DNA of 64,000 nt from a virus: IMG/VR virus record IMGVR_UViG_3300032293_001706, positions 126,553 to 190,552 of that record. The stretch is one strand, 5' to 3'. Position 1 is the first letter of the stretch, and each line of letters begins with the position of its first letter. Below are positions 28,455 through 64,000 of this stretch, piece by piece. A program made the position numbers and the translations under genes. The notes beneath the pieces were generated by a model. That model was not told the DNA's origin. It made no database searches and saw only the letters and a list, made by a program, of their open reading frames with translations.

Positions 28455-29654
28455 ATGGAAGAAGAAATTATATTTGAATTGTTAGATGATTTTACATCTG
28501 GTGGGAAGTTATATTATGATGATGAATATAAGTCAATATGGATGATAAATCCAGATACAAAACAATGGATATTTGAATTCAAAAAAACAGGAACTTTATG
28601 GTATTCTTATCCGGTTTTTACCAAAATTTTTAAATACGTTTCGATGGATTATCCTGATTTTAACCCGTATATTAAAAAGTGGGTTGAAAGAATCCTTCAA
28701 AAGGAGGCTAAAAACACCCAATCAATGGGGGGTCAGGAGACATTTTGGGTTGAAAGAATCCTTCAAAAGGAGGTTAAAAACACCATTGAACTTAATGGCT
28801 CAGCCGCCCCAACGGTTGAAAGAATCCTTCAGCAAGATAATAATTTAGACTTAAATGAAAACATTAATGAAAGTGAAGAATCCCCATTAGTTGATGAAGA
28901 AATTATATTTGAATTATTAGATGATTTTACATCTGATGGGAAGCTATATTATGATGATAAAACGGAATCCATATGGATGATAAATCCAGATACAAAAGAA
29001 TGGATATTTGAATTCGAAAAATCAGGAGATTTATGGTATCATTATAAAGTTTTTGAAAGTATTTTTAAATACATTTCGATGGAATATCCTGATTTTGAAC
29101 CATACATAACAAAGTGGGCTGAAAGAATCCTCCAAAAGGAGGTTAAAGACACCGCAAACTCGTATTGGGTGCTGCCGATGGCCGCTGAAAGAATCCTTCA
29201 AAAGGAGATTAAAGACACCATTTTTGTGCAACATCTGCAAAACTCTGGAGTTGAAAGAATCCTTCAACAAGATAATAATTTAGACTTAAATGAAAACATT
29301 AATGATGGCGAAGAACCATCATCAGTTGATGAAGAAATTATATTTGAGTTGTTAGATGATTTTACTAATGATTATGATAAGTATCAATCTTATAATGGAG
29401 ATACTTTTCTTATTAATCCTAATAAGAAAGATTGGTTAATAGAAATAGATGAAGAAAACTATTTATGGTATAACAAAGATATATTTGTAAAAATTTTCAA
29501 ATACGTTTCGATGGAATACCCTGATTTTGAACCATATATAACAAAGTGGGTTGAAAAAAAAATTAACATTAAAATTAAAGAAACTTATGATATTTTCTGG
29601 GGTAGAGGGGGTAAAATAATAGATGTAATTACAAATGGATTTAAAGAAACATAA
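28455..29654 (+). CDS. Three tandem copies of a ~75-aa domain (EEEIIFELLDDF...PDFxPYIxKW), each followed by in-frame repeat/spacer units
   Basis: Internal triplication visible in the translation; modules joined by QDNNLDLNENIN linkers; TATTTAT motif at 28430-28436. Confidence 0.85.
   Translation: MEEEIIFELLDDFTSGGKLYYDDEYKSIWMINPDTKQWIFEFKKTGTLWYSYPVFTKIFKYVSMDYPDFNPYIKKWVERILQKEAKNTQSMGGQETFWVERILQKEVKNTIELNGSAAPTVERILQQDNNLDLNENINESEESPLVDEEIIFELLDDFTSDGKLYYDDKTESIWMINPDTKEWIFEFEKSGDLWYHYKVFESIFKYISMEYPDFEPYITKWAERILQKEVKDTANSYWVLPMAAERILQKEIKDTIFVQHLQNSGVERILQQDNNLDLNENINDGEEPSSVDEEIIFELLDDFTNDYDKYQSYNGDTFLINPNKKDWLIEIDEENYLWYNKDIFVKIFKYVSMEYPDFEPYITKWVEKKINIKIKETYDIFWGRGGKIIDVITNGFKET
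28683..28831. CRISPR. CRISPR-like mini-array A1, in frame within CDS (2 full and 1 partial repeat, 2 spacers)
   Basis: Repeats 28683-718 and 28749-784 (GTTGAAAGAATCCTTCAAAAGGAGG[C/T]TAAAAACACC), partial 28815-831; both spacers exactly 30 nt. Confidence 0.7.
29118..29267. CRISPR. CRISPR-like mini-array A2, in frame within CDS (2 full and 1 partial repeat, 2 spacers)
   Basis: Repeats 29118-153 and 29184-219, partial 29250-267; both spacers 30 nt and unrelated to the A1 spacers. Confidence 0.7.
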
Positions 29655-29665
29655 TGAGAAAAAAA

Positions 29666-29697
29666 GTTGGTTATGTTAAAAAATTGGCCTATATTTG
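29666..29697 (+). promoter_or_regulatory. Bacteroidota sigmaA-type promoter
   Basis: GTTG (29666-69), 20 nt, TATATTTG (29690-97). Confidence 0.65.
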
Positions 29698-29703
29698 TAA
29701 TAG

Positions 29704-29873
29704 GAAATCGATGAAAAAAGTCCAAAGGTTTTGAGGACATAAAAATAAAAAACCTGATTGGAAAGGTTGAAGGTAACCCTCCCAATGAACCCGAAAGAAA
29801 ATCTTCTTAGCAAGTCTACCGCGAACTAGAGTTAGACAAAAAAAGAGGGCCAAAAGTCCTCTTTTTCTTTTTT
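29704..29873 (+). ncRNA. Candidate structured small RNA
   Basis: Lies between a host-type promoter and a terminator; no ORF longer than about 14 codons from an ATG; hairpins at 29720-38, 29758-85 and 29814-37. Confidence 0.35.
29840..29873 (+). terminator. Intrinsic terminator (near-copy of 28394-28425)
   Basis: AAAAAGAGGGC-CAAAA-GTCCTCTTTTT plus T tract; one G-U pair on the plus strand. Confidence 0.8.
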
Positions 29874-29902
29874 GTTATATTTATAAGTAATAAGACCTTT
29901 AA

Positions 29903-30976
29903 ATGGAAGAAGAAATTATATTTGAGTTATTAGATGATTTTACATCTGATGGAAAGTTATATTATGATGATGAATATGACTCCATATGGATGATAAATCC
30001 AAAAACAAAAAAATGGATATTTGAATTCGAAAAATCAGGAAATTTATGGTATTCTTATTCAATTTTTAACAAAATTTTTAAATACGTATCGATGGAATTC
30101 CCTGATTTTGAACCATACATAACAAAGTGGGCTGAAAGAATCCTCCAAAAAGAGGTTAAAGACACCTTTCATGGTCTTCGAAACTTTCCCGCTCCAGTTG
30201 AAAGAATCCTTCAAAAAGAGGTTAAAGACACCCGGATGGACAGCTATACATCAACAGCGGTGGTTGAAAGAATCCTTCAAAAAGAGGTTAAAGACACCTC
30301 ATCCAGTTCGCTTTTCTTAGGGAAGGTGGTTGAAAGAATCCTTCAAAAAGAGGTTAAAGACACCGAACATTTTGAAGAGCGTTTCATTGAAGTGGTTGAA
30401 AGAATCCTTCAAAAAGATAATAGTTTGGATTTAAATGAAAGTTCACCGATTAAATTAATCCAATTATTTAAAGAAGTTTTAATTGAAGGTCAAATAGATG
30501 GAACATTAGTTAATAAAACTTATGATGGTTATAATGTTAAATTTATTTTATCTAAACATGCCGATGAAAGAAGAAATAGAGTTGATAATTATTCAGAAAT
30601 AACATATGAAGAACTAATATCCGCAATTGAGGAAGCAATTCCTAAGATTGTTGATAAAGCGTTTAAAACACATAAACGAAATATTGTAGGACCTGTTAAC
30701 AATGGAATGATATATATTAGAGATAGTAAGACAGGACAATTAAATAAAAAAGACGCTCAAGAGTTTTTCATCTACAAAAAAGAATCAGAATTACAAATTA
30801 AATGTAAGGTTTTAAATTTTGATAAAAATAAGGGTTATATTGAAATTATAATAAAAACTTTAATGAAAAGTCGTACAGATAAATTAAATATGAACGACCC
30901 GAAAAGAAACACCCTGTATTTAAATATTTTTGAAAACATTAATAACTTTGAGAATTATTTTATAATAGAAATATAA
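29903..30976 (+). CDS. ~75-aa domain, in-frame array and C-terminal domain with SxHAxER motif (possible RNase/toxin fold)
   Basis: N-terminus near-identical to module 2 of 28455; C-terminal LSKHADERRNR; TATTTAT motif at 29878-84. Confidence 0.8.
   Translation: MEEEIIFELLDDFTSDGKLYYDDEYDSIWMINPKTKKWIFEFEKSGNLWYSYSIFNKIFKYVSMEFPDFEPYITKWAERILQKEVKDTFHGLRNFPAPVERILQKEVKDTRMDSYTSTAVVERILQKEVKDTSSSSLFLGKVVERILQKEVKDTEHFEERFIEVVERILQKDNSLDLNESSPIKLIQLFKEVLIEGQIDGTLVNKTYDGYNVKFILSKHADERRNRVDNYSEITYEELISAIEEAIPKIVDKAFKTHKRNIVGPVNNGMIYIRDSKTGQLNKKDAQEFFIYKKESELQIKCKVLNFDKNKGYIEIIIKTLMKSRTDKLNMNDPKRNTLYLNIFENINNFENYFIIEI
30131..30417. CRISPR. CRISPR-like array A3, in frame within CDS (4 full and 1 partial repeat, 4 spacers)
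   Basis: Repeats start at 30131, 30197, 30263 and 30329 (GTTGAAAGAATCCTTCAAAAAGAGGTTAAAGACACC), partial 30395-417; strict 66-nt period. Confidence 0.75.
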
Positions 30977-31047
30977 TTATTTACTACTATTTAAATAATG
31001 TTAAATTATTTTTATAGATTTAAGAAATCTGTAAAATTTTTAACAAA

Positions 31048-31656
31048 ATGGATAAAAAAATTGCAAAATTAAAAAATTCCCCAAAAGTGTTGGGACTCGA
31101 CATCAGCACAAAAGTTATCGGATTCGCTTTATTCGACATTCAAAGTAAAAAACTTCTCGAATTAACACACTTTTCGCCTGTAATCAAACCACAACCTGAA
31201 GATAAAATAGAGGAGATGATTTTGAAGGTAAACGCCTTTATCAAAAAACTTCAAGATTACAAAGATATGGGAATTACTAAAGTTATTATTGAGGAACCAT
31301 TGTTAGGTTCAAATAACGTTCATACGGTTGGAACATTAATGAGATATAATGCAATGATAACAAAATCAATACATGATGCATTGAATATCGTGCCAAATTA
31401 TATCTCAACATATAATTCAAGAAAGTATGCTTGGCCACAACTTATGAGTAAAAACGACAAAAATAGGGAAACTCTATTTGGTGGTTATCCTAAAGATATT
31501 GACAAAAAACAAGTGGTTTGGGAACTTGTTTCAAAAGAAGAACCACAAATAGTTTGGTTGTATACGAAAAACATGACATTAAAAAAAGAATGTTTTGACC
31601 AAGCTGACGCATATACCTGTGTCAGGGGGTATATGAAAATGAATTCTTTTTGGTGA
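31048..31656 (+). CDS. RuvC-like Holliday junction resolvase
   Basis: VLGLDISTKVIGFALFD, IIEEP, FDQADAY (RNase H-fold acidic residues). Confidence 0.75.
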   Translation: MDKKIAKLKNSPKVLGLDISTKVIGFALFDIQSKKLLELTHFSPVIKPQPEDKIEEMILKVNAFIKKLQDYKDMGITKVIIEEPLLGSNNVHTVGTLMRYNAMITKSIHDALNIVPNYISTYNSRKYAWPQLMSKNDKNRETLFGGYPKDIDKKQVVWELVSKEEPQIVWLYTKNMTLKKECFDQADAYTCVRGYMKMNSFW

Positions 31657-31692
31657 TTTGATATCAAGATTTTTTTTATTATCTTTCTTAAA

Positions 31693-32616
31693 GTGGAAGA
31701 TAACGCAATTTTAGTTGAACTTATTGAAGGTGTTTTTGGTAAAATAAGGAAACATTACCCAAACCACGGACAATTAAGTGTTGATTGTCCTGTATGTTCA
31801 TATGATATAAAAGGTTTAGATAAACTTGATGGTAAGGGCAACTTAGAGATTAATTATGCGGAGCATGTTTTTAAATGTTGGGCTTGTGGAGAATCAAATA
31901 ACACACAAGGACATTTGGGATATCTTATTGATAGATATGGGAAAAAGAAAGACAAAGACCTATATAAATTAATTAGACCAGATGAATTCATAAGAACAGA
32001 AAAGAAATATGACAAATTAAAACTACCGAAAGATTTCAAATTAGCAACCGACGGGAACAAATATCATATCCCGTTTAGGGAAATGAGGAATTATCTTAAA
32101 AGTAGAGGGATAACAGATGAAATGATTAAAAAACATAACATTGGTTATTCTTTGGAAGGTGAATATGCATTTAGGGTTATCATCCCATCTTATGATAAAA
32201 ATGGGGAATTAAATTATTTTACAGGTAGGTCATGGAATCCAAAATCAAAATTAAAATATAAAAACCCTGAAGCTGAGAAACAAATAGTTATCTTTAATGA
32301 AAATCTAATTGATTGGGAAAAAGACATATATATCTGTGAAGGACCATTCGATTCACTTTTTTTGGAAAACTCAATTGCTCTTCTCGGTAAAAAATTATCT
32401 GATACCTTGTTTACTGAATTGTATGAAAAAACGAAGAAGGATATAATTATTGTTTTGGATTCTGATGCTTGGGAAGATTCCAAAAAAATATACTTTAATT
32501 TAAGTGGCGGAAAATTATATGGGAGAATTAAAGTTGTTAAACTTCCTGAAGGAAAGGACATTGCGGATTTAAGAGGTAATATACTACCTGAATACTTTAT
32601 ACAATTAGAAAAATGA
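31693..32616 (+). CDS. DNA primase (Zn finger plus TOPRIM)
   Basis: CPVC...FKCWAC zinc-binding domain; YLKSRGI; ICEGPFD; IIVLDSD; KDIAD. Confidence 0.85.
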   Translation: MEDNAILVELIEGVFGKIRKHYPNHGQLSVDCPVCSYDIKGLDKLDGKGNLEINYAEHVFKCWACGESNNTQGHLGYLIDRYGKKKDKDLYKLIRPDEFIRTEKKYDKLKLPKDFKLATDGNKYHIPFREMRNYLKSRGITDEMIKKHNIGYSLEGEYAFRVIIPSYDKNGELNYFTGRSWNPKSKLKYKNPEAEKQIVIFNENLIDWEKDIYICEGPFDSLFLENSIALLGKKLSDTLFTELYEKTKKDIIIVLDSDAWEDSKKIYFNLSGGKLYGRIKVVKLPEGKDIADLRGNILPEYFIQLEK

Positions 32617-33395
32617 TGGAAACAATAATAGAATTATCAAAATTTAACGATGTTAAATATTTTGACGGACCACACAAATATTATGTAGGAACAAAAGAAT
32701 ATGTTTCGGCGACAACCTTTATTGGGAAATACAAGGCAAAATTTCAAACACAATTATTGGCTGAAAAATATGCTGAAAAAAGAGGATTAGACGTTAACGA
32801 GGTAATTGCAGAATGGGAATTAAAGAAAGACATATCAACGGTAAAAGGAACTCTTCTTCATAATATGGCTGAGAATTGGTGGAATAATAAATCATTTCCA
32901 TACGATTCATCATTAGTTATTAAAAAATTTGGTTATGACATAATCGAAGAGAACTATAGAAAATGTGAAACAATTTTTCATAGATTTTATGAAGATGCAA
33001 AACAAAATCTAATACCTGTAAAAATGGAATTGGTTGTTTGTGACCATGACTATGAAATTGCCGGAATGGTAGATTGTTTATTCTATAACAAAAAGTCAGG
33101 AATGTTGGAGATTTGGGATTATAAAACAAATAAAGAAATTAAAAGTAGTAACAATTTTGGTAATAAAATGTTACATCCAATTTCCCATCTTGATGAGTGT
33201 GAAATGAATACATATTCACTTCAGTTGGGTTTATATAAACATATTATTCAAAAAAATACAAATTTAAATATTGGTAACTGTTATTTGTTGTGGATAAATG
33301 AAAATAACGATACTTATAAGATATTCACTTGTAAGGATTTATATGCTGAATTAAAATTAATGATAGAAGATTATGAAAATACCAAGAACTCGTAA
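32613..33395 (+). CDS. PD-(D/E)XK (RecB/lambda-exo-like) nuclease
   Basis: GTLLH, IAGMVDCLF, IWDYKT, YSLQLGLY motifs. Confidence 0.8.
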   Translation: MMETIIELSKFNDVKYFDGPHKYYVGTKEYVSATTFIGKYKAKFQTQLLAEKYAEKRGLDVNEVIAEWELKKDISTVKGTLLHNMAENWWNNKSFPYDSSLVIKKFGYDIIEENYRKCETIFHRFYEDAKQNLIPVKMELVVCDHDYEIAGMVDCLFYNKKSGMLEIWDYKTNKEIKSSNNFGNKMLHPISHLDECEMNTYSLQLGLYKHIIQKNTNLNIGNCYLLWINENNDTYKIFTCKDLYAELKLMIEDYENTKNS

Positions 33396-33483
33396 AGCAA
33401 AACTAAAGAAAAAGAAAAAGTATTTTGAAAAGTACACAAAGACATTAAAGAAATATTTAAAGGTTAGATATAATTGGGATTAA
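33373..33483 (+). CDS. 36-aa Lys-rich peptide
   Basis: MKIPRTRKAKLKKKKKYFEKYTKTLKKYLKVRYNWD, translated by hand; overlaps the nuclease stop. Confidence 0.3.
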   Translation: MKIPRTRKAKLKKKKKYFEKYTKTLKKYLKVRYNWD

Positions 33484-33536
33484 TTTATTGATTAAACCCA
33501 ATTAAATTGTTATATTTAATCATCAAAATATATTAA

Positions 33537-34319
33537 ATGATTAAAAAACTCGTACATTTTTCAGATTTACACATTCGTTTATTTAAGGACCATGATTTAT
33601 ATCGCAAAATTATTAGTGATATGTTCTCAGAATTCCGAAAAATAAACCCTGATAGAATTGTTTTCACAGGTGATTTAGTTCACTCCAAAAATCAGATGAC
33701 ACCCGAATTAATTAATATGGTTTCTTGGGTGTTAACTGAATGCTCTAAAATTGCAAAAACAATTTTAATAATTGGAAATCATGATTTTCTTGAGAACAAT
33801 ACCGAAAGATTAGACGCTTTAAGTCCAATTATTGATTCACTAAATAATGACAATATCATATATTTGAAAAATCGTGGGGTTTATTCCGACTCAAATATAG
33901 ATTGGTGTGTTTATTCACTATATGAACATAATCTACCACCTGATATTAATCCTAACTCCACGAACACCAAGATTGGGTTATTTCACGGACCTGTAGTGGG
34001 GCTATCTACGGATATTGGATATAAGTTTGAAGACGGGTTCGATAGTAGTAAATTTTCAGGTTGTGATGTTGTATTATGTGGTGACATCCACAAAAGACAG
34101 ATATTTAACATACCTAATGGAAAAAAGGCGTATATGGTGGGTTCAAGTATACAGCAAAATTTTGGGGAAAAAGTAACCAATCATGGATTCGGAATTTATG
34201 ATGTGTTGGAAGATAAATATGAGTTTGTCGACCTAAAAAACCCAAAACCATTTTTAGTGTTTAAAATCGACGATTACTCTGTCATTGAAACAGGAACTGA
34301 AACGTTAAAAAACTATTAA
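33537..34319 (+). CDS. SbcD/Mre11/gp47-like metallophosphoesterase nuclease subunit
   Basis: HFSDLHI, FTGDLVH, IGNHD, GLFHG, LCGDIH, YMVGSSIQQNFGE. Confidence 0.9.
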   Translation: MIKKLVHFSDLHIRLFKDHDLYRKIISDMFSEFRKINPDRIVFTGDLVHSKNQMTPELINMVSWVLTECSKIAKTILIIGNHDFLENNTERLDALSPIIDSLNNDNIIYLKNRGVYSDSNIDWCVYSLYEHNLPPDINPNSTNTKIGLFHGPVVGLSTDIGYKFEDGFDSSKFSGCDVVLCGDIHKRQIFNIPNGKKAYMVGSSIQQNFGEKVTNHGFGIYDVLEDKYEFVDLKNPKPFLVFKIDDYSVIETGTETLKNY

Positions 34320-34687
34320 TGGAACAACTTATTATTGAACTCAACTCACTTGAATTACAAGAGATAGAAAAATTCTGTGAAATTAATAATTTTAATATCG
34401 ATGAAACTGTTACCAAGTGTTTTAAAAACGGATTTATCATCGAGAAATACGGATTTTTAGGAAAAGAAATTGAAATCCCTGTTGAAAAAATAGAGAATAC
34501 TGATGATGATTTGAAAGTAAAACAATTACAACAGACAATTCAGGATTTAACATTAAAAATTCGTGAAAAAGAAAATGAAATTAAAGAATTGAAAGATACA
34601 ATAAAAAATTTTAATATTAATAACGAAAAAACACAAGTAACGTATTTACGTTCATCAAATTTAGAAGATAATTTATATAAAGATTAA
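34319..34687 (+). CDS. Hypothetical coiled-coil protein
   Basis: Coupled ORF with a heptad-like C-terminal half. Confidence 0.5.
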   Translation: MEQLIIELNSLELQEIEKFCEINNFNIDETVTKCFKNGFIIEKYGFLGKEIEIPVEKIENTDDDLKVKQLQQTIQDLTLKIREKENEIKELKDTIKNFNINNEKTQVTYLRSSNLEDNLYKD

Positions 34688-34693
34688 AAATAT

Positions 34694-35029
34694 ATGTGGT
34701 TAATAATTTGGATTTTAGCGGCTTATGGAATGAGCCAAATTTTAGTGTATGGTTCAATATTTGAATCAACAAGACAAAAAATTCATAAATGGGGGGACAA
34801 CGAATATGCCCCACTACAAGGGATAGGTAAGTTTATATCGGGTTTAATCCAATGCATGATGTGTGTATCTACATGGATTGGATTTTTTATGAGTTTAGTT
34901 CTATTTTCACCAATAGAATATTGTTTTAATGCTCATGTTATAATTTCAACATTTTTTGATGGAATGTTAGCATCAGGTTCAGTATGGGCAGTTAATTCAA
35001 TAATCGAATGGTATGAAGCGAAAAAATAA
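34694..35029 (+). CDS. Small membrane protein with CxxC (DUF1360-like)
   Basis: Three hydrophobic segments; IQCMMCVSTWIG. Confidence 0.55.
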   Translation: MWLIIWILAAYGMSQILVYGSIFESTRQKIHKWGDNEYAPLQGIGKFISGLIQCMMCVSTWIGFFMSLVLFSPIEYCFNAHVIISTFFDGMLASGSVWAVNSIIEWYEAKK

Positions 35030-35043
35030 TAAATTTTAATAAT

Positions 35044-35250
35044 ATGCCAGTATCTAGAAACAGAAAAAATCAGAAGAAAAAAGCTGCTCAACGCACTAAA
35101 ACACAGAAACAACAAGTAAAGAAAATACAAGACTTGTATACACAAAAAATGGTTGAAAAACTAAAAGAAATGCATGAAGAATATGTAGAAAACTCAGGTA
35201 AAACTGAAAATGATGGATTTATTCAACCCACCGATAATACCGAACTATAA
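35044..35250 (+). CDS. Small basic hypothetical protein
   Basis: MPVSRNRKNQKKK N-terminus. Confidence 0.5.
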   Translation: MPVSRNRKNQKKKAAQRTKTQKQQVKKIQDLYTQKMVEKLKEMHEEYVENSGKTENDGFIQPTDNTEL

Positions 35251-35815
35251 TTTTATGACACATAATTTAGATATAACTTCTTTAGAAAACCCATACATAC
35301 AAGTGGTGTGGGAAGACACTGCGGAAAATTTTACACAAGAAAGAATTAAAAGTGTTAGAAGTTATTTCTCCAAAAAATATAATTCAACAAATGTAAATGT
35401 TTTAACTAAGGTAAAAACGACTGATGATGTTCAACAAACAGTTGACGTGTCCGTAAATATTATGGATAGGAATTATCAGTTGGAGTTGGTTAAAGAAGTG
35501 TTGAAACAAAGAGGACAGGAAAAACTTTTAGATGATATTTTGGAATTGGATAAATTCGTTGACTCAAAAATGTCATCAGATGAAGTTCAAGCATTTAAAA
35601 AGTGGTATATTAAAAAAATAGAGTTCAGCAACTTTTTATCTTATGGTGAGAATCAAGTATTAGATTTTGAAAAATGTAATGGTATCACTGTAGTTGAGTC
35701 GAATCCCCCTAATTTTGGTGGAAAATGTATTAGGTATAATACAAAAATTGATATAGAGTATGATTTAGATTTTATTATTAAAAAATTAGGTTTTATACCT
35801 GATGAATTAAAATAA
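35210..35815 (+). CDS. SbcC/Rad50/gp46 N-terminal fragment fused to 29-aa split-intein N fragment
   Basis: IKKIEFSNFLSYG...ESNPPNFGGK (Walker A) followed by C-IRYNTKIDIEY (intein block A, Cys at 35726). Confidence 0.85.
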   Translation: MMDLFNPPIIPNYNFMTHNLDITSLENPYIQVVWEDTAENFTQERIKSVRSYFSKKYNSTNVNVLTKVKTTDDVQQTVDVSVNIMDRNYQLELVKEVLKQRGQEKLLDDILELDKFVDSKMSSDEVQAFKKWYIKKIEFSNFLSYGENQVLDFEKCNGITVVESNPPNFGGKCIRYNTKIDIEYDLDFIIKKLGFIPDELK

Positions 35816-35836
35816 TAAAACCAAATACTTTTTAAT

Positions 35837-44404: not shown

Positions 44405-45763
44405 ATGACACCACCGAAAAACCCACAAATCTTTAGTTTGTGGGATGTAAGGTGATTTTAATTTAACATAAATTATTTTTTTTTCAAAAAATGAAACTTT
44501 TTGTAATTTAATATATATTTATACTATATAAGGTAATTTAGTATAAATGTTAAAATCATATAAATATAAACTTAATCCGAATGAGGAGCAAATTGTTTTG
44601 TTAAATAAACATTTTGGTTCTATTAGGTTTGCGTATAATTATTTTCTTAATGAAAGAAAAAAAGAATATGAAACAAATAAGCAAAGTTTAAATTATTATG
44701 ATAATGCAAAATCATTAACCGAACTAAAAAAACAAGAAGAATACTCTTGGTTAAACGAAATTAATTCACAATCATTACAAGTATCATTAAAACATTTGGA
44801 TGATGCATATAACGGATTTTTTAAAAAAAGAACAGGTTTTCCAAAATTTAAATCAAAACACACAAAAAATAGTTTTAAGGTTCCACAGTTTGTTAAATTG
44901 GAAAAAGGCAAGTTAAAAATACCAAAATTTAATAAGGCAATTGATGTTATTTTACATAGAAGTTTTAATGGCAAAATTAAATCTTGTACAATATCAAAAA
45001 CACCAACAAATGAATATTTTGTTTCCATCCTTGTGGAAACCAAACATAAGAAATTGGACAAAACCGGAAAATCAATCGGGATTGATTTGGGGCTGAAAGA
45101 TTTTCTTACAACCAGCGATGGTTATAAATATAAAAATAATCGTTATACAAAAACTTATCAAACATTACTTAAAAAAGCTCAACAACATTTGAGTAGAAAA
45201 ACAAGAGGTTCAAACAAATATCAAAAACAAAAACTGAAAGTTGCAAAACTACACAAGAAGATAACCAATTCTCGTTTAGATAATTTGCACAAAGTATCCA
45301 CAGATTTGATTCGAAAATACGATTTAATTGTATTAGAAGACTTAAATATTAAAGGAATAATTAAAAATCATAAACTTTCAAAACATATTGCTGATGCCAG
45401 TTGGTCAAAGTTCATAGAACTTTTAAAATATAAAGCGGAATGGAATGAAAAAGAAATTGTTAGAATTGATAGATTTTTTCCTTCCAGTAAAACTTGCAAT
45501 TGTTGTGGATATATAAATCAAAATCTAAAATTAAATATGAGAGAATGGACTTGTCCATCTTGTAATACAAAATTAGATAGAGATTTAAATGCTAGCCAAA
45601 ACATCCTTAATGAAGGATATAAAATAATATCGGACGGGACATCCGATAACAGAAGTCGAGGCGAAATAAGACCAACTTTAGTTGGCACAACCGATGAAAC
45701 TTTTAAAGTTCTGAATATTTATAATTCAGAAGCCCAACCATCTTTAGTGGTTGGGTAGTTCAC
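44405..45763 (+). mobile_element. IS200/IS605-family (IS1341-like, tnpB-only) element
   Basis: Left hairpin CCCACAAA-TCTTTAG-TTTGTGGG (44422-44), right hairpin CCCAACCA-TCTTTAG-TGGTTGGG (45733-55), ending TAGTTCAC; preceded by TTTAT; no tnpA in the window. Confidence 0.8.
44547..45758 (+). CDS. tnpB: TnpB RNA-guided endonuclease
   Basis: HTH (KSYKYKLNP), RuvC-I GIDLGL, RuvC-II LEDLN, Zn ribbon CNCC...CPSC, RuvC-III DRDLNA; catalytic D-E-D intact. Confidence 0.95.
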   Translation: MLKSYKYKLNPNEEQIVLLNKHFGSIRFAYNYFLNERKKEYETNKQSLNYYDNAKSLTELKKQEEYSWLNEINSQSLQVSLKHLDDAYNGFFKKRTGFPKFKSKHTKNSFKVPQFVKLEKGKLKIPKFNKAIDVILHRSFNGKIKSCTISKTPTNEYFVSILVETKHKKLDKTGKSIGIDLGLKDFLTTSDGYKYKNNRYTKTYQTLLKKAQQHLSRKTRGSNKYQKQKLKVAKLHKKITNSRLDNLHKVSTDLIRKYDLIVLEDLNIKGIIKNHKLSKHIADASWSKFIELLKYKAEWNEKEIVRIDRFFPSSKTCNCCGYINQNLKLNMREWTCPSCNTKLDRDLNASQNILNEGYKIISDGTSDNRSRGEIRPTLVGTTDETFKVLNIYNSEAQPSLVVG

Positions 45764-54188: not shown

Positions 54189-54199
54189 TAATTTCTAAA

Positions 54200-54466: not shown

Positions 54467-54522
54467 ATTTGAAATTTAATTATTTTAAACTATCATTAAA
54501 CTAAAATTAAGAAAAAAATAAA

Positions 54523-54988: not shown

Positions 54989-54989
54989 A

Positions 54990-55304: not shown

Positions 55305-55594
55305 TGAAAAAAATTTTTTTATTTACAATGAAAGGATGTCCACATTGTTTGGATTTAAAAGAAATGTTATATGATGAAGATATTGATTTTGTTGAAAAAG
55401 ACATTGATGAAAATGATTCTGAATATGAAGAATTTAAGTCCATTGTTGACGGAAATGAATATGTACCAGCATTTCTATGTGTCAAAATAGACCAAAATAA
55501 AATTGAAGACTATGCAGCTTTAGTTCCCGAAAGAGATTTTCAGGAACTAAGCGAAGCGGTTGAAATGGTTAAGAATTTCTTAACCAAAGATTAA
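55304..55594 (+). CDS. Glutaredoxin-like protein
   Basis: FTMKGCPHC, YVPAF. Confidence 0.8.
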   Translation: MKKIFLFTMKGCPHCLDLKEMLYDEDIDFVEKDIDENDSEYEEFKSIVDGNEYVPAFLCVKIDQNKIEDYAALVPERDFQELSEAVEMVKNFLTKD

Positions 55595-56457: not shown

Positions 56458-56487
56458 GTGAAAATATTAAAAAATAAATATCATTAG

Positions 56488-57525
56488 TTAAATATTATCT
56501 TTAAAATATTCATTATAATTTGAAACAACTTCAGACCAAGATGGGCTTGTATTATCTAAGTATACACGTAAACCTTCATATGTGTCTTTTATAAAAGTAT
56601 CTAATCTACCATGATAATCAAGTAATTCATTTGAATCCTCCATTTTCCCTAAATAAGAACTAATAGAGTCTTTAACCATATTATCAAAAACATTTGTAAT
56701 ATTTACACCATATTCATAGTTGTTAACTTTTTCACCATTTTTTAAAGTTTTTGTTTTTGTAAAATTTTCGTATAAAGGTTCATCTCTAGATAAAAGTAAA
56801 AATTTTCTAATGACATTAGTTACTAAACTATAGTATTCATCTGAAAGGGCCGATTCGTAAGCCTGATTATATAAAGAGTTCAAATCAACTTTTAAGTCAT
56901 TAAATTCATCACAATTTTTTATTAAATCGTAAATCTCTTTAGATTCAACTATCTTATTTAACCTATCAGTGGTCAGTATAAACGTATTATCGTCATTATC
57001 AGACTCAATAAAATCAAGTATAACTCCACTACTACCATTATAATATAATTCTTTATTAAGACCATTTTCTTTAATTATTTCAATGAGTTTTTTAAAGTTA
57101 TCATTAGATAAATCATCTATTATTGATGACTCATAATTTTCATAATAAAAACCATAATCTAAATTACCTTCTAATATATTTCTAATAAATTCTTCACTGG
57201 CACTATTTCTTGAACTGCTAAATAAATCGGATAAATCACCAATTTCACTTAACATTAAATAATATTTATTATTCTCGTATTTAACATCAGGTAATTGTTC
57301 CGCAAAAAAGTTAAGAACATCCTTTATTGATTTTTCTTTAATCCAAAAATCAAAATATTCGTTAGGTAAAAGGTCAATCATCGAATCATCTAAATGTTCG
57401 CCACTAATAATACCCTCATCAATTAGATGATTGAAAAAAATATCAAAATGTTTGAAGAAGTACTTACTAATTATATCTGTTAGTTCATCACGGTCTCCAT
57501 TACTTATTATTTCTTCTAAATCCAT
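56488..57525 (-). CDS. Acidic hypothetical protein
   Basis: 345-aa ORF; TATTTAT motif on the minus strand at 57530-36. Confidence 0.6.
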   Translation of the reverse strand: MDLEEIISNGDRDELTDIISKYFFKHFDIFFNHLIDEGIISGEHLDDSMIDLLPNEYFDFWIKEKSIKDVLNFFAEQLPDVKYENNKYYLMLSEIGDLSDLFSSSRNSASEEFIRNILEGNLDYGFYYENYESSIIDDLSNDNFKKLIEIIKENGLNKELYYNGSSGVILDFIESDNDDNTFILTTDRLNKIVESKEIYDLIKNCDEFNDLKVDLNSLYNQAYESALSDEYYSLVTNVIRKFLLLSRDEPLYENFTKTKTLKNGEKVNNYEYGVNITNVFDNMVKDSISSYLGKMEDSNELLDYHGRLDTFIKDTYEGLRVYLDNTSPSWSEVVSNYNEYFKDNI

Positions 57526-57540
57526 ATTAATAAATATAAA

Positions 57541-57562
57541 AAAAGGGGAAAAATCCCCTTTT
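57541..57562. terminator. Hairpin, likely bidirectional intrinsic terminator
   Basis: AAAAGGGGA-AAAA-TCCCCTTTT. Confidence 0.7.
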
Positions 57563-57583
57563 AATCCAACACTAAAGATAAAT

Positions 57584-57709
57584 TTATTTTTTAACAGTTT
57601 TTTGGTAATACTTCTGAACTGTTTTTTTAACAGCGTTTACAACTGATTCATTAGTTGTTTGAACTGGTTGTGTTGGTTGTTGAGGTTTTTTGCATCCGCA
57701 TCCTGACAT
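57584..57709 (-). CDS. 41-aa MSGCGCK peptide
   Basis: MSGCGCKKPQQPTQPVQ...VKK, translated by hand; TATTTAT on the minus strand at 57739-45. Confidence 0.55.
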   Translation of the reverse strand: MSGCGCKKPQQPTQPVQTTNESVVNAVKKTVQKYYQKTVKK

Positions 57710-57800
57710 AATTGTAGTTTTTAAATTAGTTTATTATTATAAATATGTGAATAATGTATAAATATAGAAACGATAGTATATTTATAAATAAAATAAAGAA

Positions 57801-59588
57801 ATGAGTCTATTGCAAATATTAACAGAAGGTAGAAAAGAAGATTTTGTTGCAAGGTTTTCAAAAAAATTTAATGAAACTCAATTACAACAAATAATTAACG
57901 TTTCTGAATCATTACCAGGACAAAACAAGTATTTAAATTTTATTGGTAACGTAGTTAACCCTAATAATTTTGACACTGATATGTCTAAATTAGAAAGTTT
58001 ATTAGAAAGATTTTCAACAATAGGTCCTAACTTACCAATAAAAGATATCAACCAATATAAAACAATAGAACAGTTAAAAAATGTTATAGACGAATATAAC
58101 AATAAAATAAGAAGAGAGGTAAAAAGTGATGAGCAATCTGATTTAGTATATGAAGATGACGATATGGTTGTAATTCAACCAAAAACTTATGAGGCGTCTT
58201 GTAAATATGGTGCTGGTACAAAATGGTGTACGACCTCAACCAAATCCCATTTTGATAATCATAATAAAAATGGTAAATTATTTTATTTCATTGATAAAAA
58301 GAAACCAACATCAGACCCACTTTATAAAGTGGCGTTATATTACACTTTTGATGATAATATGAAGTTTTATAATGCAACTGATGACGTTATAAAATCAGGT
58401 TGGATTTTTGGTTCAAAAAAGTTAAAAAATATTTTGGATAGAGTGGTTGTATATATTCAAACAAATTTTGGTGAAGAGTATGAACGAATAAGAGAAGAAA
58501 ATAGAATCCGTCGTGAAGAAGAAGCTCGTAAAATGAGGGAAAGAATGGCAGAACAACAACAAAGGAGAGAAGAAGATTTGTGGAAATTACCAACTGACGA
58601 TGAGGAGGCTCTCAAAGCAAATGCGTTATTTAAATTTCTTGTCACTGAAAATAATATTGATTATATGACAGATGAAGAAAAACAAAGGTTACGTGATTTA
58701 AAACAAGAATTAGAAAGATTACAAGAAATATATAATGAAACTGAAAACGCAGATGAAAACACTGATTTAGTGTCGAATATTGAAGTAATTGAGAATGAAA
58801 TAAATGAACTTGAAGAAAAAATAGATGTTTATTATTTAATACCTGAACAGTATCCACATTATGGATTACAAATGTTTGATTATAACGATGAACAATGGGT
58901 GGTAGGAACTGAAGATGAATTTGATGAAGCCGCTTATGAATCTGCTAAATCATTGATAGATGAACTTGGGATTGAATCATTTAATTCATCATTTGTTGAA
59001 GGACATATAGACGATAAAAAAGTTAAAGATTATATTAAAGATTTTTTCTATGATATGGTATATGAAGAACCTAGTGCTTATTTAGATGATAGTGATAGAG
59101 AACTAAGTAAATCTCAGATGAGAGAAATTAACGAACTTCAAAAAGAAAAAACTACTCTCCAAGTAAAGATTAAAATGTTAGAACAAGAAAAAAAACAATT
59201 AAACATGGAAGAAGATACTTGGGAAGTAGACTATGATGAAATGAATGATAATATAACCGAGATGGAAGATAGAATTTCAGAAATTGAAGATGAAATTGAA
59301 AGTATAACATCTAACCCAGAAGGGGACTTTTCAGATGAAAAAATTGAAGGAGAAATAGAATCTCAAGTAGATTATTATGGTGGAAATGCAAAAAACTTCT
59401 ATGACAATTTTTGGGGTGATAATGATTTTACAAAATGGATGGTAAATAACAGGTTAATAGACATTGAAAGTTTAATTAAAGACTACATAGAATCAGATGG
59501 ATATGGTAATGTTTTAAGTAGTTATGATGGGGATTACTATACAGAAGAAATTGAAAACGTTAATTATTACATTATAAGAGTTAATTAA
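57801..59588 (+). CDS. Hypothetical protein with 'WCT' domain and acidic coiled coils
   Basis: PKTYEASCKYGAGTKWCT...LFYFID, paralogous to part of 52332; TATTTAT at 57779-85. Confidence 0.6.
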   Translation: MSLLQILTEGRKEDFVARFSKKFNETQLQQIINVSESLPGQNKYLNFIGNVVNPNNFDTDMSKLESLLERFSTIGPNLPIKDINQYKTIEQLKNVIDEYNNKIRREVKSDEQSDLVYEDDDMVVIQPKTYEASCKYGAGTKWCTTSTKSHFDNHNKNGKLFYFIDKKKPTSDPLYKVALYYTFDDNMKFYNATDDVIKSGWIFGSKKLKNILDRVVVYIQTNFGEEYERIREENRIRREEEARKMRERMAEQQQRREEDLWKLPTDDEEALKANALFKFLVTENNIDYMTDEEKQRLRDLKQELERLQEIYNETENADENTDLVSNIEVIENEINELEEKIDVYYLIPEQYPHYGLQMFDYNDEQWVVGTEDEFDEAAYESAKSLIDELGIESFNSSFVEGHIDDKKVKDYIKDFFYDMVYEEPSAYLDDSDRELSKSQMREINELQKEKTTLQVKIKMLEQEKKQLNMEEDTWEVDYDEMNDNITEMEDRISEIEDEIESITSNPEGDFSDEKIEGEIESQVDYYGGNAKNFYDNFWGDNDFTKWMVNNRLIDIESLIKDYIESDGYGNVLSSYDGDYYTEEIENVNYYIIRVN

Positions 59589-59598
59589 AAAAAAAAAT

Positions 59599-60330
59599 AT
59601 GAATACAAATTGGATGTTATGTGAACCGATTGATTTTGAATATCAAGAATATAAGATGATGGCGTATTTTCAAAAAGTTAGTAATGATTTGGATAACTTT
59701 AAATTATATCCACACTTTAGAGATATTTCATTAAACTACGCAAATTTTTCAAATTTAAAATCAAAGGACAAATATATAAAATTAATTAGTAAATTAGATG
59801 ATATTGATGAGGAAATTTTAATTACTGATTTAGAATATTATGACGTACCACAAATGTCACCAAAAGATTATTCTGAATACAGAACAATAATAGATTTCGG
59901 AGAATCAAAATTTAAAGACTATTTTTTAATCGCCAAATCAATTTGGACGATAATATATGAATCACTTTGGATTGATGTACTTGAAAATGAAAACGAATTA
60001 AAACGAGGAAAAGGATTCTTATTCTTTCAATATGGGGATATTAATTATCTATACAGGTACGAGAAAAAGAAATTAAAAAGAAATAAAAAAGAGACAAAAA
60101 TAGTTTTAACTCCAATCAAAATATCTGCTGATAATTTAAATATTAGTGACTTAATATCGGAAGACAAATATGAAATAAAAAAACCAGGACATCCAATATT
60201 TTTTATTAAAATTAGAAAAAACACAGAAAATATTGTTCCTTTAAATGAAACAATATTACCTCTTATTAAAAGAAGAATTGCAACTTTTCAAACCAAAGAA
60301 ACACAAAAAAAAGGACAGTTTTATAACTGA
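59599..60330 (+). CDS. Hypothetical protein
   Basis: N-terminal W..EPIDFEYQEYKMMAYFQKV. Confidence 0.6.
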   Translation: MNTNWMLCEPIDFEYQEYKMMAYFQKVSNDLDNFKLYPHFRDISLNYANFSNLKSKDKYIKLISKLDDIDEEILITDLEYYDVPQMSPKDYSEYRTIIDFGESKFKDYFLIAKSIWTIIYESLWIDVLENENELKRGKGFLFFQYGDINYLYRYEKKKLKRNKKETKIVLTPIKISADNLNISDLISEDKYEIKKPGHPIFFIKIRKNTENIVPLNETILPLIKRRIATFQTKETQKKGQFYN

Positions 60331-60367
60331 TTTGTTTTTTTAAAATCTTTTGCATAGATTTGTAGTT

Positions 60368-60970
60368 ATGAAAGCTCTTTTTTTGGACCATGATGGTGTT
60401 ATTTGTCTCAGAGACCAATGGGGAAGTAGATTTAAAAAGGAAACGAAGCTTAGAGAAAAGACAGGAATATCAAGAAATTTGAGTTCACCTGACTATGTAC
60501 TGCCTGTTGATTGTAGATTTGATAATTTTGATAAAAAGGCAATCAAAATCCTTAATAAAATTTTGGAAGTAACAGATGTTGAAATTGTTGTATCTTCAGA
60601 TTGGAAAAATTGGGCAAATGTTGAAGAAATGGGGGAATATTACCTATCACAAGGTATTATTAAAAAACCAATCGCATTTACACCAAGGCTGAGTGAATGT
60701 ACCAATTATGATAATGAAACATTTCCTTGGAGCCGTCAATGGGACTTGGAACAAAGTCGTTCACTTGAAATCAAACAATATCTTCAAAATAACCCACAAG
60801 TAACACATTGGGTTGCGGTAGATGATTTGAATATGGGTAAAACAGGAATGAGTTACAGCATAAAGTTTGAACATGATTGGGGACTTGATAATTTTGTCCA
60901 TACACCACTTTCAAATGAAGGAATTAAACAAAGTGGGGTAAAAGAAAAAATAATTAATTTCTTGATGTAA
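60368..60970 (+). CDS. HAD-superfamily (Swiss-army-knife-type) phosphatase
   Basis: FLDHDGV, IVVSSDW, SLEIKQYL, WVAVDDL; ATG start chosen at 60368. Confidence 0.8.
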   Translation: MKALFLDHDGVICLRDQWGSRFKKETKLREKTGISRNLSSPDYVLPVDCRFDNFDKKAIKILNKILEVTDVEIVVSSDWKNWANVEEMGEYYLSQGIIKKPIAFTPRLSECTNYDNETFPWSRQWDLEQSRSLEIKQYLQNNPQVTHWVAVDDLNMGKTGMSYSIKFEHDWGLDNFVHTPLSNEGIKQSGVKEKIINFLM

Positions 60971-61008
60971 TATTGATAAAAAAATAATTAAAACCTATAA
61001 TTTAAAAT

Positions 61009-61182
61009 ATGAAGACAATTAGGAATAAAAAAACAGGAGAACTAAAACGTCTAAACGACAGAGAAGCCCACAAAATGATTGTAACAACTTATTTAGGTTG
61101 GGAGTATGTACCAAAACAGATTTGGAAAAATGAAACAAGAACAGAATCTGTTAAAAAGAATAATCCCAAACTTAAAAAATAA
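61009..61182 (+). CDS. 57-aa hypothetical protein
   Basis: MKTIRNKKTGELKRLND.EA....GWEYVPKQIWK, translated by hand. Confidence 0.55.
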   Translation: MKTIRNKKTGELKRLNDREAHKMIVTTYLGWEYVPKQIWKNETRTESVKKNNPKLKK

Positions 61183-61183
61183 T

Positions 61184-61375
61184 ATGAATCAGAAAGAGGA
61201 AAAACTTTTGATGTCGAAATTAAGGAGTCCTCTCCATATTAGTTACATTGCACATATTCTCAAATGTGACATTGAAAAAGCGACTGAAATTATTCAAGAA
61301 TTGGAAAAAAACGATATTGTTGTTGAATACAACAGAGAAGTTGCAAAAGGATATTACGTAATAAAAAATAAATAA
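61184..61375 (+). CDS. Small winged-HTH-like protein
   Basis: HISYIAHILKCDIEKATEIIQELEKNDIV..GYY pattern. Confidence 0.45.
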   Translation: MNQKEEKLLMSKLRSPLHISYIAHILKCDIEKATEIIQELEKNDIVVEYNREVAKGYYVIKNK

Positions 61376-61376
61376 T

Positions 61377-62570
61377 ATGAAAGTTTTTTTAGAATATATT
61401 TGGTTGGATGGTTATAAACCAGAACCAAATCTTAGAAGTAAGGTAAAAGTAATTGACCATAATCAATATAATATTAAATTAGATGATTGTCCCGAATGGT
61501 CATTTGATGGTTCATCGACAAAACAAGCGGAAGGACATTTTTCAGATTGCATTTTAAAACCTGTTAAAATTTATCCAAACCCATTAAACACTAGCAAAAA
61601 ACCATCATTTTTTGTTTTTTGTGAAGTTATGAATCCAGACGGAACACCGCATAGTTCAAATACAAGGGCATCAATTAGGTCAACGGTTCCATTATCAGAC
61701 TCATTTGAAAAAATAACACCGAGCAGTTCAAACGAAGGAGAATTAATCAGTGAAGAAGATGAAGATTTATGGTTTGGGTTTGAACAGGAATATACAATTA
61801 TTAAAGATGGTAGACCACTTGGTTTTCCGATTAATGGGTATCCTGAACCGCAAGGAAAATATTATTGTGGTGTTGGAAACGGACAGGTAAATGGACGTGA
61901 ATTTGTTCAAAAACATATGGAATATTGTATTGGTGCAGGAATTGACATTACAGGAACAAATGCGGAAGTTCTTTTGGGACAATGGGAATACCAAGTTTTT
62001 TCAAAAGGTAAATTGAAAGCTGGTGACGACCTTTGGATTTCTAGATATATTCTACAACAAATGTCCGAAGATTATGGTTTTACCATTGAGTTCCATCCAA
62101 AACCTGTAAGCGGAGACTGGAATGGCTCTGGTCTACACTGCAATTTTTCAAATGGGAAAATGAGGGATATTGGTGGGGAAGAATACTTCAAAAGTATATT
62201 TTCTACTTTTGATTCAAGACATATAGAACACATTGAAAATTATGGTTCAGATAATAACCTAAGATTGACTGGAAAGCATGAAACACAATCAATTGACAAG
62301 TTTAGTTGGGGAATTTCTGACAGAGGAGCATCCATAAGAGTTCCTTTAAGTACCTCAAAAGAATGGAAAGGATATGTCGAAGATAGAAGGCCAGCATCAA
62401 ATGCAGACCCTTATAGAATTATTAAGGTGATTTCCGAATCTCTAAAACTTTCAGAAACAACCAATAATGTTAGACATATGATGTATGCTAATGTTAATCT
62501 TGATGACATTACAAACAAATATGGTATGATTTCAAATGAAGAACTTTTAAAAGATTATATTAATGACTAA
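61377..62570 (+). CDS. glnII: Glutamine synthetase type II
   Basis: EYIWLDG, WSFDGSST, GFEQEY, NAEV..GQWEYQ, HPKP..GDWNGSG.H.N, RLTG.HET, DRGASIRVP, EDRRPASN. Confidence 0.93.
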   Translation: MKVFLEYIWLDGYKPEPNLRSKVKVIDHNQYNIKLDDCPEWSFDGSSTKQAEGHFSDCILKPVKIYPNPLNTSKKPSFFVFCEVMNPDGTPHSSNTRASIRSTVPLSDSFEKITPSSSNEGELISEEDEDLWFGFEQEYTIIKDGRPLGFPINGYPEPQGKYYCGVGNGQVNGREFVQKHMEYCIGAGIDITGTNAEVLLGQWEYQVFSKGKLKAGDDLWISRYILQQMSEDYGFTIEFHPKPVSGDWNGSGLHCNFSNGKMRDIGGEEYFKSIFSTFDSRHIEHIENYGSDNNLRLTGKHETQSIDKFSWGISDRGASIRVPLSTSKEWKGYVEDRRPASNADPYRIIKVISESLKLSETTNNVRHMMYANVNLDDITNKYGMISNEELLKDYIND

Positions 62571-62733
62571 TTCAGAGAATACAGAAAAGTGTATCAATTG
62601 TGGAATAGACACCGAAATACCAATAAGACAAAATATCGATTTAAGATATGGATATGTTGAAGGTGCGGGTCAATTATGTTCAGAGTGTTTTAAAAAAATC
62701 TACAAAAAAGTAACGGAACAAAATAATGATTAA
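62563..62733 (+). CDS. 56-aa Zn-ribbon protein
   Basis: CINCG...YVEGAGQLCSEC, translated by hand. Confidence 0.6.
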   Translation: MTNSENTEKCINCGIDTEIPIRQNIDLRYGYVEGAGQLCSECFKKIYKKVTEQNND

Positions 62734-63217
62734 TTCTAAGACAAAAAGAATAATTTTGGTTGGAAAAGCGGCTTCAGGTAAAGATTTTTTAAGAAAAAAG
62801 TTTGAGAGTCGTGGTTTCACATTTGGTGTTAGTTACACAACAAGACCAAAAAGAAAGGGTGAAGAGGAAGGAAAAGATTATTATTTCTTAACTGAAGAAG
62901 AATCAAATAAAATGATTGAAGATGGGTTATTTTATGAATGTATATACTTTAATGGATGGTTATATGGTACAACCAAAGAACAGTTCTATCGTGACGATTT
63001 ATTCATTATGACACCAAAAGGGATATCTAAAATCAAACCTGAAGATAGAGAGAGTTCTTTTATTATTTATACTGATATAGATAGACAAACACGAATGAAT
63101 CGTTTATCAGAAAGAGAAATGCCTGGAGATAGTTTATTAAGAAGAATAGACGCTGATGAAATTGATTTTATGGATTTTAATGATTATGATATGAGAATCA
63201 CAAATCCTAATTTTTAA
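62726..63217 (+). CDS. gmk: Guanylate kinase-like protein
   Basis: GKAASGK P-loop, SYTTRPKR.GE..G.DYYF, YGT. Confidence 0.85.
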   Translation: MINSKTKRIILVGKAASGKDFLRKKFESRGFTFGVSYTTRPKRKGEEEGKDYYFLTEEESNKMIEDGLFYECIYFNGWLYGTTKEQFYRDDLFIMTPKGISKIKPEDRESSFIIYTDIDRQTRMNRLSEREMPGDSLLRRIDADEIDFMDFNDYDMRITNPNF

Positions 63218-63218
63218 A

Positions 63219-64000
63219 ATGGAAAAACAAATAATATTAGAATTTCTTAATGACTTCACAAAAGGTTATGATATATATCATCATAATGGTTCCATGTGGT
63301 TTATTTTAACCGAAGATAGAAAGTGGTTAATAGAATTAGATAAAAAAGGAACTTTGTGGTATAACTATCATTTTTTTTCGGGTATTTTTAGGTATGTAGC
63401 AATGGAATACCCTGATTTTACACCATATATAACAAAGTGGGTTGAAGACACCATTCAAAATGGGGTTAAGAACACCTACTTGCCGTTCAGGTTTTCCACG
63501 AAGCGAGTTGAAGACACCATTCAAAATGGGGTTAAGAACACCCACCAAACCAGTGGGTGCCGTGAAATTGGAGTTGAAGACACCATTCAAAATGGGGTTA
63601 AGAACACCGTTTGTGGTGAGCGATTCGCAGCAGGGAATGTTGAAGACACCATTCAAAATGGGGTTAAGAACACCAGAAATAAAAACTACGAGCCTGAAGG
63701 TTACGTTGAAGACACCATTCAAAATGGGGTTAAGAACACCTATTCAGACGTGATATATCACGTCTCCTACGTTGAAGACACCATTCAAAATGGGGTTAAG
63801 AACACCTATTTTGACTTCGAAAAACCCCTGCAGGAAGTTGAAGACACCATTCAAAATGGGGTTAAGAACACCCATTGCGTAGCGTCGTCCGTAGGTGATG
63901 GCGTTGAAGACACCATTCAAAATGGGGTTAAGAACACCAGTGCGTTTAAATTTGCAATAATGAACGCAGTTGAAGACACCATTCAAAATGGGGTTAAGAA
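63219..64000 (+). CDS. ~74-aa conserved domain fused in frame to the CRISPR-like array (3' truncated; absent from ORF track)
   Basis: ATG 63219, MEKQIILEFLNDF...MEYPDFTPYITKW, then (VEDTIQNGVKNT + 10 variable aa)n with no stop to the window end. Confidence 0.85.
   Translation, partial: MEKQIILEFLNDFTKGYDIYHHNGSMWFILTEDRKWLIELDKKGTLWYNYHFFSGIFRYVAMEYPDFTPYITKWVEDTIQNGVKNTYLPFRFSTKRVEDTIQNGVKNTHQTSGCREIGVEDTIQNGVKNTVCGERFAAGNVEDTIQNGVKNTRNKNYEPEGYVEDTIQNGVKNTYSDVIYHVSYVEDTIQNGVKNTYFDFEKPLQEVEDTIQNGVKNTHCVASSVGDGVEDTIQNGVKNTSAFKFAIMNAVEDTIQNGVK
63441..64000. CRISPR. CRISPR-like array B: at least 9 identical 36-nt repeats and 8 unique 30-nt spacers
   Basis: GTTGAAGACACCATTCAAAATGGGGTTAAGAACACC at 63441, 63507, 63573, 63639, 63705, 63771, 63837, 63903 and 63969 (cut by the window edge). 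Confidence 0.85.

Follow-up and report, generated by a model that had tools for sequence, protein, structure and literature searches.

The last 64 kb of the 190,552-bp virus record IMGVR_UViG_3300032293_001706 from IMG/VR hold three open reading frames (ORFs), all on the plus strand and here called genes C, D and E, in which arrays of the CRISPR type run in frame directly behind a conserved N-terminal domain (N-domain), with no AT-rich noncoding leader. We refer to this whole stretch of 64,000 nucleotides (nt), whose end is also the end of the contig, as the window. The spacers of these arrays carry no stop codon in the frame of the surrounding gene, and the same holds for homologous arrays on other contigs. 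We think it likely overall that the genes belong to a phage gene family with translated CRISPR-type arrays of host DNA, from which captures bearing stop codons have been purged and whose units are made by an integrase acting in trans.

The arrays were located by Tandem Repeats Finder and a pattern search. Two more array genes of the same kind (A and B) lie on the contig outside the window; the genes and arrays within it are as follows.

Gene C, 28455..29654, plus strand: 399 amino acids (aa), three tandem N-domain modules (from the ORF list, the translation and the N-domain alignment).
Array C1, 28683..28832, plus strand: repeats starting at 28683 and 28749, truncated terminal repeat at 28815; spacers 28719-28748 and 28785-28814.
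Array C2, 29118..29267, plus strand: repeats starting at 29118 and 29184, truncated terminal repeat at 29250; spacers 29154-29183 and 29220-29249.
Gene D, 29903..30976, plus strand: 357 aa; N-domain at 29903-30130, then a 4-spacer array, then a 182-aa C-terminal domain.
Array D, 30131..30417, plus strand: repeats starting at 30131, 30197, 30263 and 30329, truncated terminal repeat at 30395.
Array D spacers, plus strand: 30167-30196, 30233-30262, 30299-30328 and 30365-30394.
Gene E, 63219..64000, plus strand: N-domain at 63219-63440, then an array running past the contig end.
Array E, 63441..64000, plus strand: eight spacers (63477-63506 through 63939-63968) among nine identical repeats of another, second type; the ninth repeat is truncated by the end of the contig.

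All 16 spacers of the window (2 + 2 in gene C, 4 in gene D and 8 in gene E; 26 on the contig when genes A and B are included) are exactly 30 nt long and stand between 36-nt repeats with a strict period of 66 nt. Since each unit of 66 bp amounts to 22 codons, the reading frame is never shifted. The spacers are mutually unrelated in sequence. The repeats of array E are identical, as are the inner repeats of array D, and the terminal repeats are degenerate past their first 17-23 nt. The 36-bp repeat starts with GTTG, ends with ACACC and encodes a 12-residue motif, which is VERILQKEVKDT in the type found in genes C and D and VEDTIQNGVKxT in gene E and most relatives. Modules 1 and 2 of gene C each end in a 2-spacer array, and module 3 has none. 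The contig breaks off within array E, where assembly probably failed at the identical repeats.

The original prediction had counted no stops among the 160 in-frame spacer codons lying between 28719 and 63968, and six in the in-register antisense frame of the same spacers. Our recount agrees on both figures (0/160 and exactly 6/160), and the remaining four frames contain 4-11 stops per 144 codons each. Shuffling the bases within each window spacer gives P = 1.1e-4 for the absence of in-frame stops. The roughly 2e-4 estimated earlier is somewhat optimistic for the window alone when set against a fairer null, drawn from the bacterial genes that the spacers match (see below). Random 30-mers from these genes, taken on any strand and in any phase, are open in 74% of cases and carry a stop in ∼26%, so that all 16 window spacers would be open by chance with a probability of 0.74^16 = 0.008, and the 26 contig spacers, which are likewise all open (0/260 in-frame stops), with one of 4e-4. 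Peptides predicted to span repeat-spacer junctions, including DTEHFEER, were found in the translations of the array genes. The described compositional difference between spacers and phage was also borne out, with a GC content of 46.9% in the window spacers versus 30.0% in the contig and a CpG frequency ∼3.4 times higher (0.056 versus 0.016 per dinucleotide).

Homologous arrays were sought at the DNA level in metagenome contigs and IMG/VR, by requiring two motif-coding repeats 66 nt apart and leaving the spacers unconstrained, which avoids the bias of gene callers. This search yielded 163 loci on independent contigs, with 289 arrays and, after near-identical ones were collapsed, 396 distinct spacers. 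Not one of their 3,960 in-frame codons is a stop, whereas stops make up 4.3-8.2% of codons in the five other frames; correspondingly, 396/396 spacers are open in frame, compared with 49-70% in any other frame. In a smaller, metagenome-only set a single spacer contained an in-frame stop; the contig carrying it was covered only 1.45-fold, and a near-twin of this spacer was free of stops. Every array is preceded by at least 54 open codons, and the last spacer is open in 38/38 distinct cases in which fewer than 50 aa follow the array. The absence of stops from 396 spacers, for which unfiltered random capture would have a vanishingly low probability, is decisive for openness. In-frame stops at the random rate (4-8%, as in the other frames) are thus not seen, which supports the earlier proposal that the array is under selection to stay open and, by extension, that it may be translated.

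An ordinary protein tandem repeat mimicking a CRISPR array could account for a period that is a multiple of three, for repeats located inside ORFs and for a motif conserved as protein. Against this, and against a chance or assembly artefact, stand spacers that are mutually unrelated and that are exact copies of bacterial genes, the occurrence of the same architecture on all of these independent contigs and normal stop rates in the other frames. We regard explanations of this kind as having a negligible chance of being correct.

A bacterial origin of the spacers is indicated by the first spacer of array E, whose 24-nt core has an exact match in two Bacteroidota metagenome-assembled genomes (MAGs; G001 and G002), in which the six bases omitted from the core match too. 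BLAST of the arrays against these two MAGs and 125 genomes of their Bacteroidota family matched 11/16 window spacers (7/8 in array E, 3/4 in array D and 1/4 in gene C), most of them over 30/30 positions and at dispersed loci; six of the seven matched spacers of array E hit G002. On the contig as a whole 15/26 spacers match the family, including four of one array outside the window. Spacers 1 and 3 of array D (30167-30196 and 30299-30328) match a DsbH-like thioredoxin gene and a threonyl-tRNA synthetase gene, both at 30/30 and antisense, and spacer 2 (30233-30262) matches a gene for a PKD/T9SS (type IX secretion system) protein at 30/30, sense but out of frame. The second spacer of array C2 (29220-29249) matches a fatty-acid desaturase gene of G002 at 27/30, antisense, and neither spacer of array C1 has a reported match in the family. 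Fourteen of the 15 protospacers are genic. The genes identified by Pfam include accA, relA/spoT, panB, a nuoE-like gene and those for a Glu/Leu/Phe/Val dehydrogenase (gdh), threonyl-tRNA synthetase (thrS), a PKD/CHU_C protein and a multicopper oxidase that ends in a T9SS sorting tail. The remaining protospacer lies in a noncoding repeat element. Its spacer (63741-63770) is an internal palindrome, and the element (locus L033, G002:C202:6880-7100), of which a stretch of ∼300 bp on the bacterial contig contains three copies or more, is probably a noncoding repeat resembling repetitive extragenic palindromic sequences rather than a gene.

Control arrays of two other phages, compared with the same 125 genomes, gave 0/7 matches and 1 marginal match among 12. 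None of the spacers originates from the phage contig itself. The original description of the spacers as foreign or near-random sequence therefore stands in its first part, with 11/16 matching one bacterial family, and falls in its second, as these are fragments of real host genes. Because the protospacers lie in ordinary, dispersed bacterial genes, the direction of transfer is from bacterium to phage, and the source is most simply the host lineage; the spacers point to one Bacteroidota family with T9SS-sorted proteins. The 26 contig spacers average 46% GC, compared with 51.5% (standard deviation, 9.3) for random 30-mers of the matched host loci. This suggests a preference for AT-richer pieces at capture or in retention, since a stop filter would bias the spacers toward GC, the opposite way. 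In the CRISPR loci of the host family we found no convincing spacer against this phage.

Stop-free spacers could also arise without any selection on translation if DNA were captured in frame from the coding strand, which the original prediction had raised as a point to be checked. The 14 genic protospacers divide into 9 on the sense strand, of which 5 are in frame and 4 out of frame, and 5 that are antisense. Measured against the unfiltered expectation of 1/6, five in-frame cases lend such capture some support (P = 0.07); the expected in-frame share after a stop filter is 0.225, however, from which the observed 5/14 does not differ (P = 0.19), so that the share is consistent with random capture plus a stop filter. 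Moreover, the 9/14 protospacers that are out of frame or antisense, together with the noncoding one, all gave rise to open spacers. In-frame capture as the cause of openness is hence very improbable. Since capture is not in frame, openness has to come from selection or another filter, at or after capture, and the data fit random capture followed by the loss of stop-bearing units.

The repeats bear the marks of two kinds of constraint. Across 389 distinct repeats, variation at positions outside the search pattern shows a three-base periodicity, a sign of constraint on the protein, with the third positions of Val, Lys and Thr codons free and the first and second positions fixed. Homologues also retain older, degenerate copies of the motif; the linkers that separate them vary in length, and some recur. 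At the same time the rare codons GGG and ACC occur in 64-80% of repeats, versus 11% in the background, and CAA, AAT and GTT show hardly any variation. P values for this codon bias are overstated, since the repeats cannot be counted as independent of one another. As synonymous sites of the repeat are constrained, these data suggest a second constraint at the nucleotide level, such as an integrase recognition site or an RNA recognition site would impose.

An exact 30-bp insert, an exact 36-bp repeat duplication and a decaying terminal repeat are the footprint of Cas1-Cas2 integration. Searches for Cas1 and Cas2 found neither in this contig (63% complete) nor in four array-bearing relatives (93-100% complete). 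Cas1 is present in 19/125 genomes of the matched Bacteroidota family, and one family member with a 93% protospacer match (G064) carries cas9-cas1-cas2 and repeats of 47 nt that alternate with spacers of 30 nt. In the best-matching G001 and G002 no Cas1 was found, both MAGs being incomplete. A precedent for such an arrangement comes from Hoikkala et al. 2021 (PMC8092290), who described type VI-B arrays with 36-bp repeats that lack a Cas1 of their own and are filled in trans by the Cas1 of a type II-C system; many of the VI-B spacers are self-derived, and the II-C repeats are ∼11 bp longer in most species. Integration by a host integrase acting in trans seems the better-than-even explanation for the phage arrays.

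Several observations weigh against the reading of the arrays as translated products of a CRISPR-type integrase. We infer their translation from sequence, and in the AlphaFold2 model of gene D the array beyond its beginning has a predicted local distance difference test (pLDDT) score of <50, leaving a role as a structured module unsupported. No protospacer-adjacent motif (PAM) was seen in the 15 protospacers, in which no base exceeds 8/15 at any position within 15 nt on either side, the sample being small. The hairpin of the repeat does not exceed shuffled sequences in stability (z between -0.97 and +0.27). Covariation gives it no support, as most stem variants in the common repeat type are one-sided and pair-breaking, and Rfam returned neither a CRISPR repeat family nor any other significant match. 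A phage-like repeat was found neither in G001 and G002 nor in the 125 family genomes, and the family's type II repeats have little in common with it except that they start with GTTG and end in a sequence resembling ACA(A/C)C. Finally, spacer differences among related arrays fall at proximal, internal and distal positions, and the first repeat of array D (30131) is a variant with two changes relative to the identical inner repeats; the internal and distal differences and this variant suggest growth that, unlike canonical adaptation, is not leader-polarised. The positional pattern of spacer differences might also result from deletions and recombination.

One contig from run X2 carries, right after the repeat that ends at 28784, a different 30-nt spacer in place of window positions 28785-28814, again GC-rich and stop-free. 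This suggests spacer turnover between strains, on the strength of a single contig. The Logan contigs over the window region are fragmentary and show only this alternative spacer.

Some of the points above are also what an unrecognised phage enzyme, or recombination or repair, would predict if either inserted 30-bp host fragments and duplicated the repeat: cas1 and cas2 are missing from all phages examined, no PAM is apparent, insertions do not look polarised and G001 and G002, incomplete as they are, show no Cas1. Against this, an exact insert of 30 bp coupled to an exact repeat duplication of 36 bp is what marks staggered Cas1-Cas2 integration, the matched family contains type II systems whose spacers are 30 nt long, and filling in trans has the documented precedent cited above. 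We consider such an origin of the units, by a route other than Cas1-Cas2, unlikely.

The arrays might alternatively serve mainly as guide RNAs against host genes, through an effector of the host or one not yet identified in the phage, with the frame kept open only for the sake of a downstream domain or a ribosome-protected transcript. Such a role would fit the matches of spacers to host housekeeping genes, the constraint on synonymous sites of the repeat beyond what the protein needs, the VI-B-like repeat length and GTTG start, and the existence of huge phages with Cas1-less arrays, some with host-targeting spacers (PMC7162821). It sits poorly with the mixed strands of the protospacers (9 sense versus 5 antisense), which would leave the majority of spacers unable to pair with host mRNA, with the lack of a visible PAM and with the differing repeats of the host family. 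The last spacers, moreover, are open even before very short tails. As for an effector, we found no Cas9-type RuvC_III domain in five phage genomes, with a model that matched no control genome either, and this phage alone has a TnpB-like gene, which the four near-complete array-bearing relatives lack. A predominant guide-RNA function thus seems improbable to us, and such a role is not needed for explaining the data.

The 30-bp spacers are pieces of the chromosome of one Bacteroidota lineage and come from either strand and any codon phase. In the mechanism that we favor, they would be captured by an integrase of the Cas1-Cas2 type that is not phage-encoded and would most likely be the type II adaptation module of the host, acting in trans. 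Ribosomes would read through the arrays as modules of 12 + 10 residues, which may form a flexible segment between the N-domain and whatever comes next. Purifying selection would then remove captures with an in-frame stop, expected to be about a quarter of random captures. Each capture would duplicate the motif and add a 10-residue linker whose content is irrelevant as long as it is open, and so would yield a longer and more diverse protein. A bolder reading, to which we give slightly less than even credence, is that a CRISPR-type integrase acts here as a writer of protein: it would install repeated 22-residue modules of host DNA in arbitrary frames, stops would be purged and the survivors would be kept for long under protein-level selection, making the array both a de novo coding engine and a log of past hosts.

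The gene family to which C, D and E appear to belong is large and combines a small folded N-terminal domain with a CRISPR-type array. When a library of 1.84 billion representatives was searched with a profile of the N-domain (alignment A1, with 11 copies on this contig), 371 protein clusters matched, and many of the best 150 clusters show 22-residue periodic modules consisting of a 12-residue motif and 10 variable residues. The unit of N-domain and array is fused to varied C-terminal domains and is itself also tandemly repeated. Back-translated patterns found no N-domain relatives in IMG/VR, and a word-indexed protein search found only the window's own paralogue. Scanning the array genes with Pfam and PHROGs gave no informative family; the sole PHROGs matches are phrog_36119 and phrog_27331, both of unassigned function, at the C termini of genes A and B outside the window, and the 182-aa C-terminal domain of gene D has no family match. 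The AlphaFold2 model of gene D, built from an 80-sequence alignment, places residues 1-86 at a pLDDT of 94-97, and the last helix of the N-domain (residues 70-86) extends into the first repeat. Fold searches produced no clear match: the top score against the PDB was Z 5.2, and all matches from BFVD were phage proteins that are uncharacterised.

The contig has a GC content of 30.0% and an estimated completeness of 63% (CheckV). Since array-bearing contigs of 272-304 kb are 93-100% complete, we take the source of the window to be a freshwater jumbo phage of ∼300 kb.

Other features of the window touch the arrays less directly. Upstream of both gene C (28400-28454) and gene D (29655-29902) stand an identical terminator-like hairpin and a promoter-like stretch of the TATTTAT type. 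The region between these two genes also holds a GC-richer segment of ∼140 nt (roughly 29700-29840), which aligns with 10 mismatches to a 602-nt contig of 76x depth from one lake run; no tRNA, tmRNA or Rfam family was found in this intergenic region. The TnpB-like gene is a 403-aa ORF on the plus strand (44547-45758) with a TnpB/Cas12f-like zinc-ribbon match (PF07282; E 1.4e-25), and it looks like an IS605-type insertion unconnected to the arrays. Long in-frame tandem repeats of other kinds lie at 4124-4255, 9307-9758 and 22263-23473. Their units are either Thr/Pro-rich (6-36 nt) or Ser/Gly-rich (9-90 nt), as is typical of fibre or linker regions in phages, and have no relation to the arrays.

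Among known systems, the phage arrays come close to the VI-B (Cas13b) arrays that Flavobacterium columnare and further Bacteroidota carry (PMC8092290), with which they share 36-bp repeats, a GTTG start, the lack of adaptation genes of their own and many spacers from the host chromosome, which in the VI-B case are self-derived. In both settings the type II repeats are longer, by ∼11 bp in most species there and with 47 versus 36 nt here. Unlike those arrays, the present ones reside in a phage, inside ORFs and in frame, behind a coding "leader" and without stops; their repeats end in ACACC where the others have ACAAC, the protospacers show no visible PAM, and growth does not appear leader-polarised. 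The CRISPR arrays of huge phages described by Al-Shayeb et al. 2020 (PMC7162821) likewise lack Cas1, Cas2 and Cas4, and some of their spacers are directed against the host chromosome. They have in common with ours the jumbo-phage setting, compact arrays, the absence of acquisition genes and spacers from bacterial chromosomes, but they are described as noncoding and as often lying beside effectors. The arrays reported here, by contrast, are parts of protein genes, number several per genome, always stand behind one conserved domain and have no in-frame stops.

As in phage diversity-generating retroelements, a short protein segment is rewritten while the scaffold remains unchanged; those elements mutate a fixed template via reverse transcription, whereas here unrelated pieces of host DNA are flanked by duplicated repeats. 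Off-target spacer integration that creates neo-CRISPR loci was reportedly described by Nivala and colleagues in 2018. Ectopic spacer acquisition is also on record for S. thermophilus (PMC7999890). Such events resemble ours in that insertion takes place at repeat-like sites outside the canonical leader-repeat junction, internal repeats included, and differ in that they are reported as rare laboratory events, as opposed to the widespread, selected gene family seen here. A literature search, in which most subscription journals were missing, found no description of in-frame translated CRISPR-type arrays.

CRISPR arrays are held to be noncoding memory, and here the same architecture is kept readable within ORFs across hundreds of arrays. 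If our interpretation is correct, a reaction of the immunity type of integrase would make new phage protein sequence from host DNA, and protein repeats could expand, and de novo peptides arise, from a source not recognised before. This interpretation raises the testable questions of whether Cas1-Cas2 can act in trans on invading DNA and how far protein linkers tolerate arbitrary sequence. Spacers carried by such phages may also offer a possible means of assigning hosts to uncultured jumbo phages.

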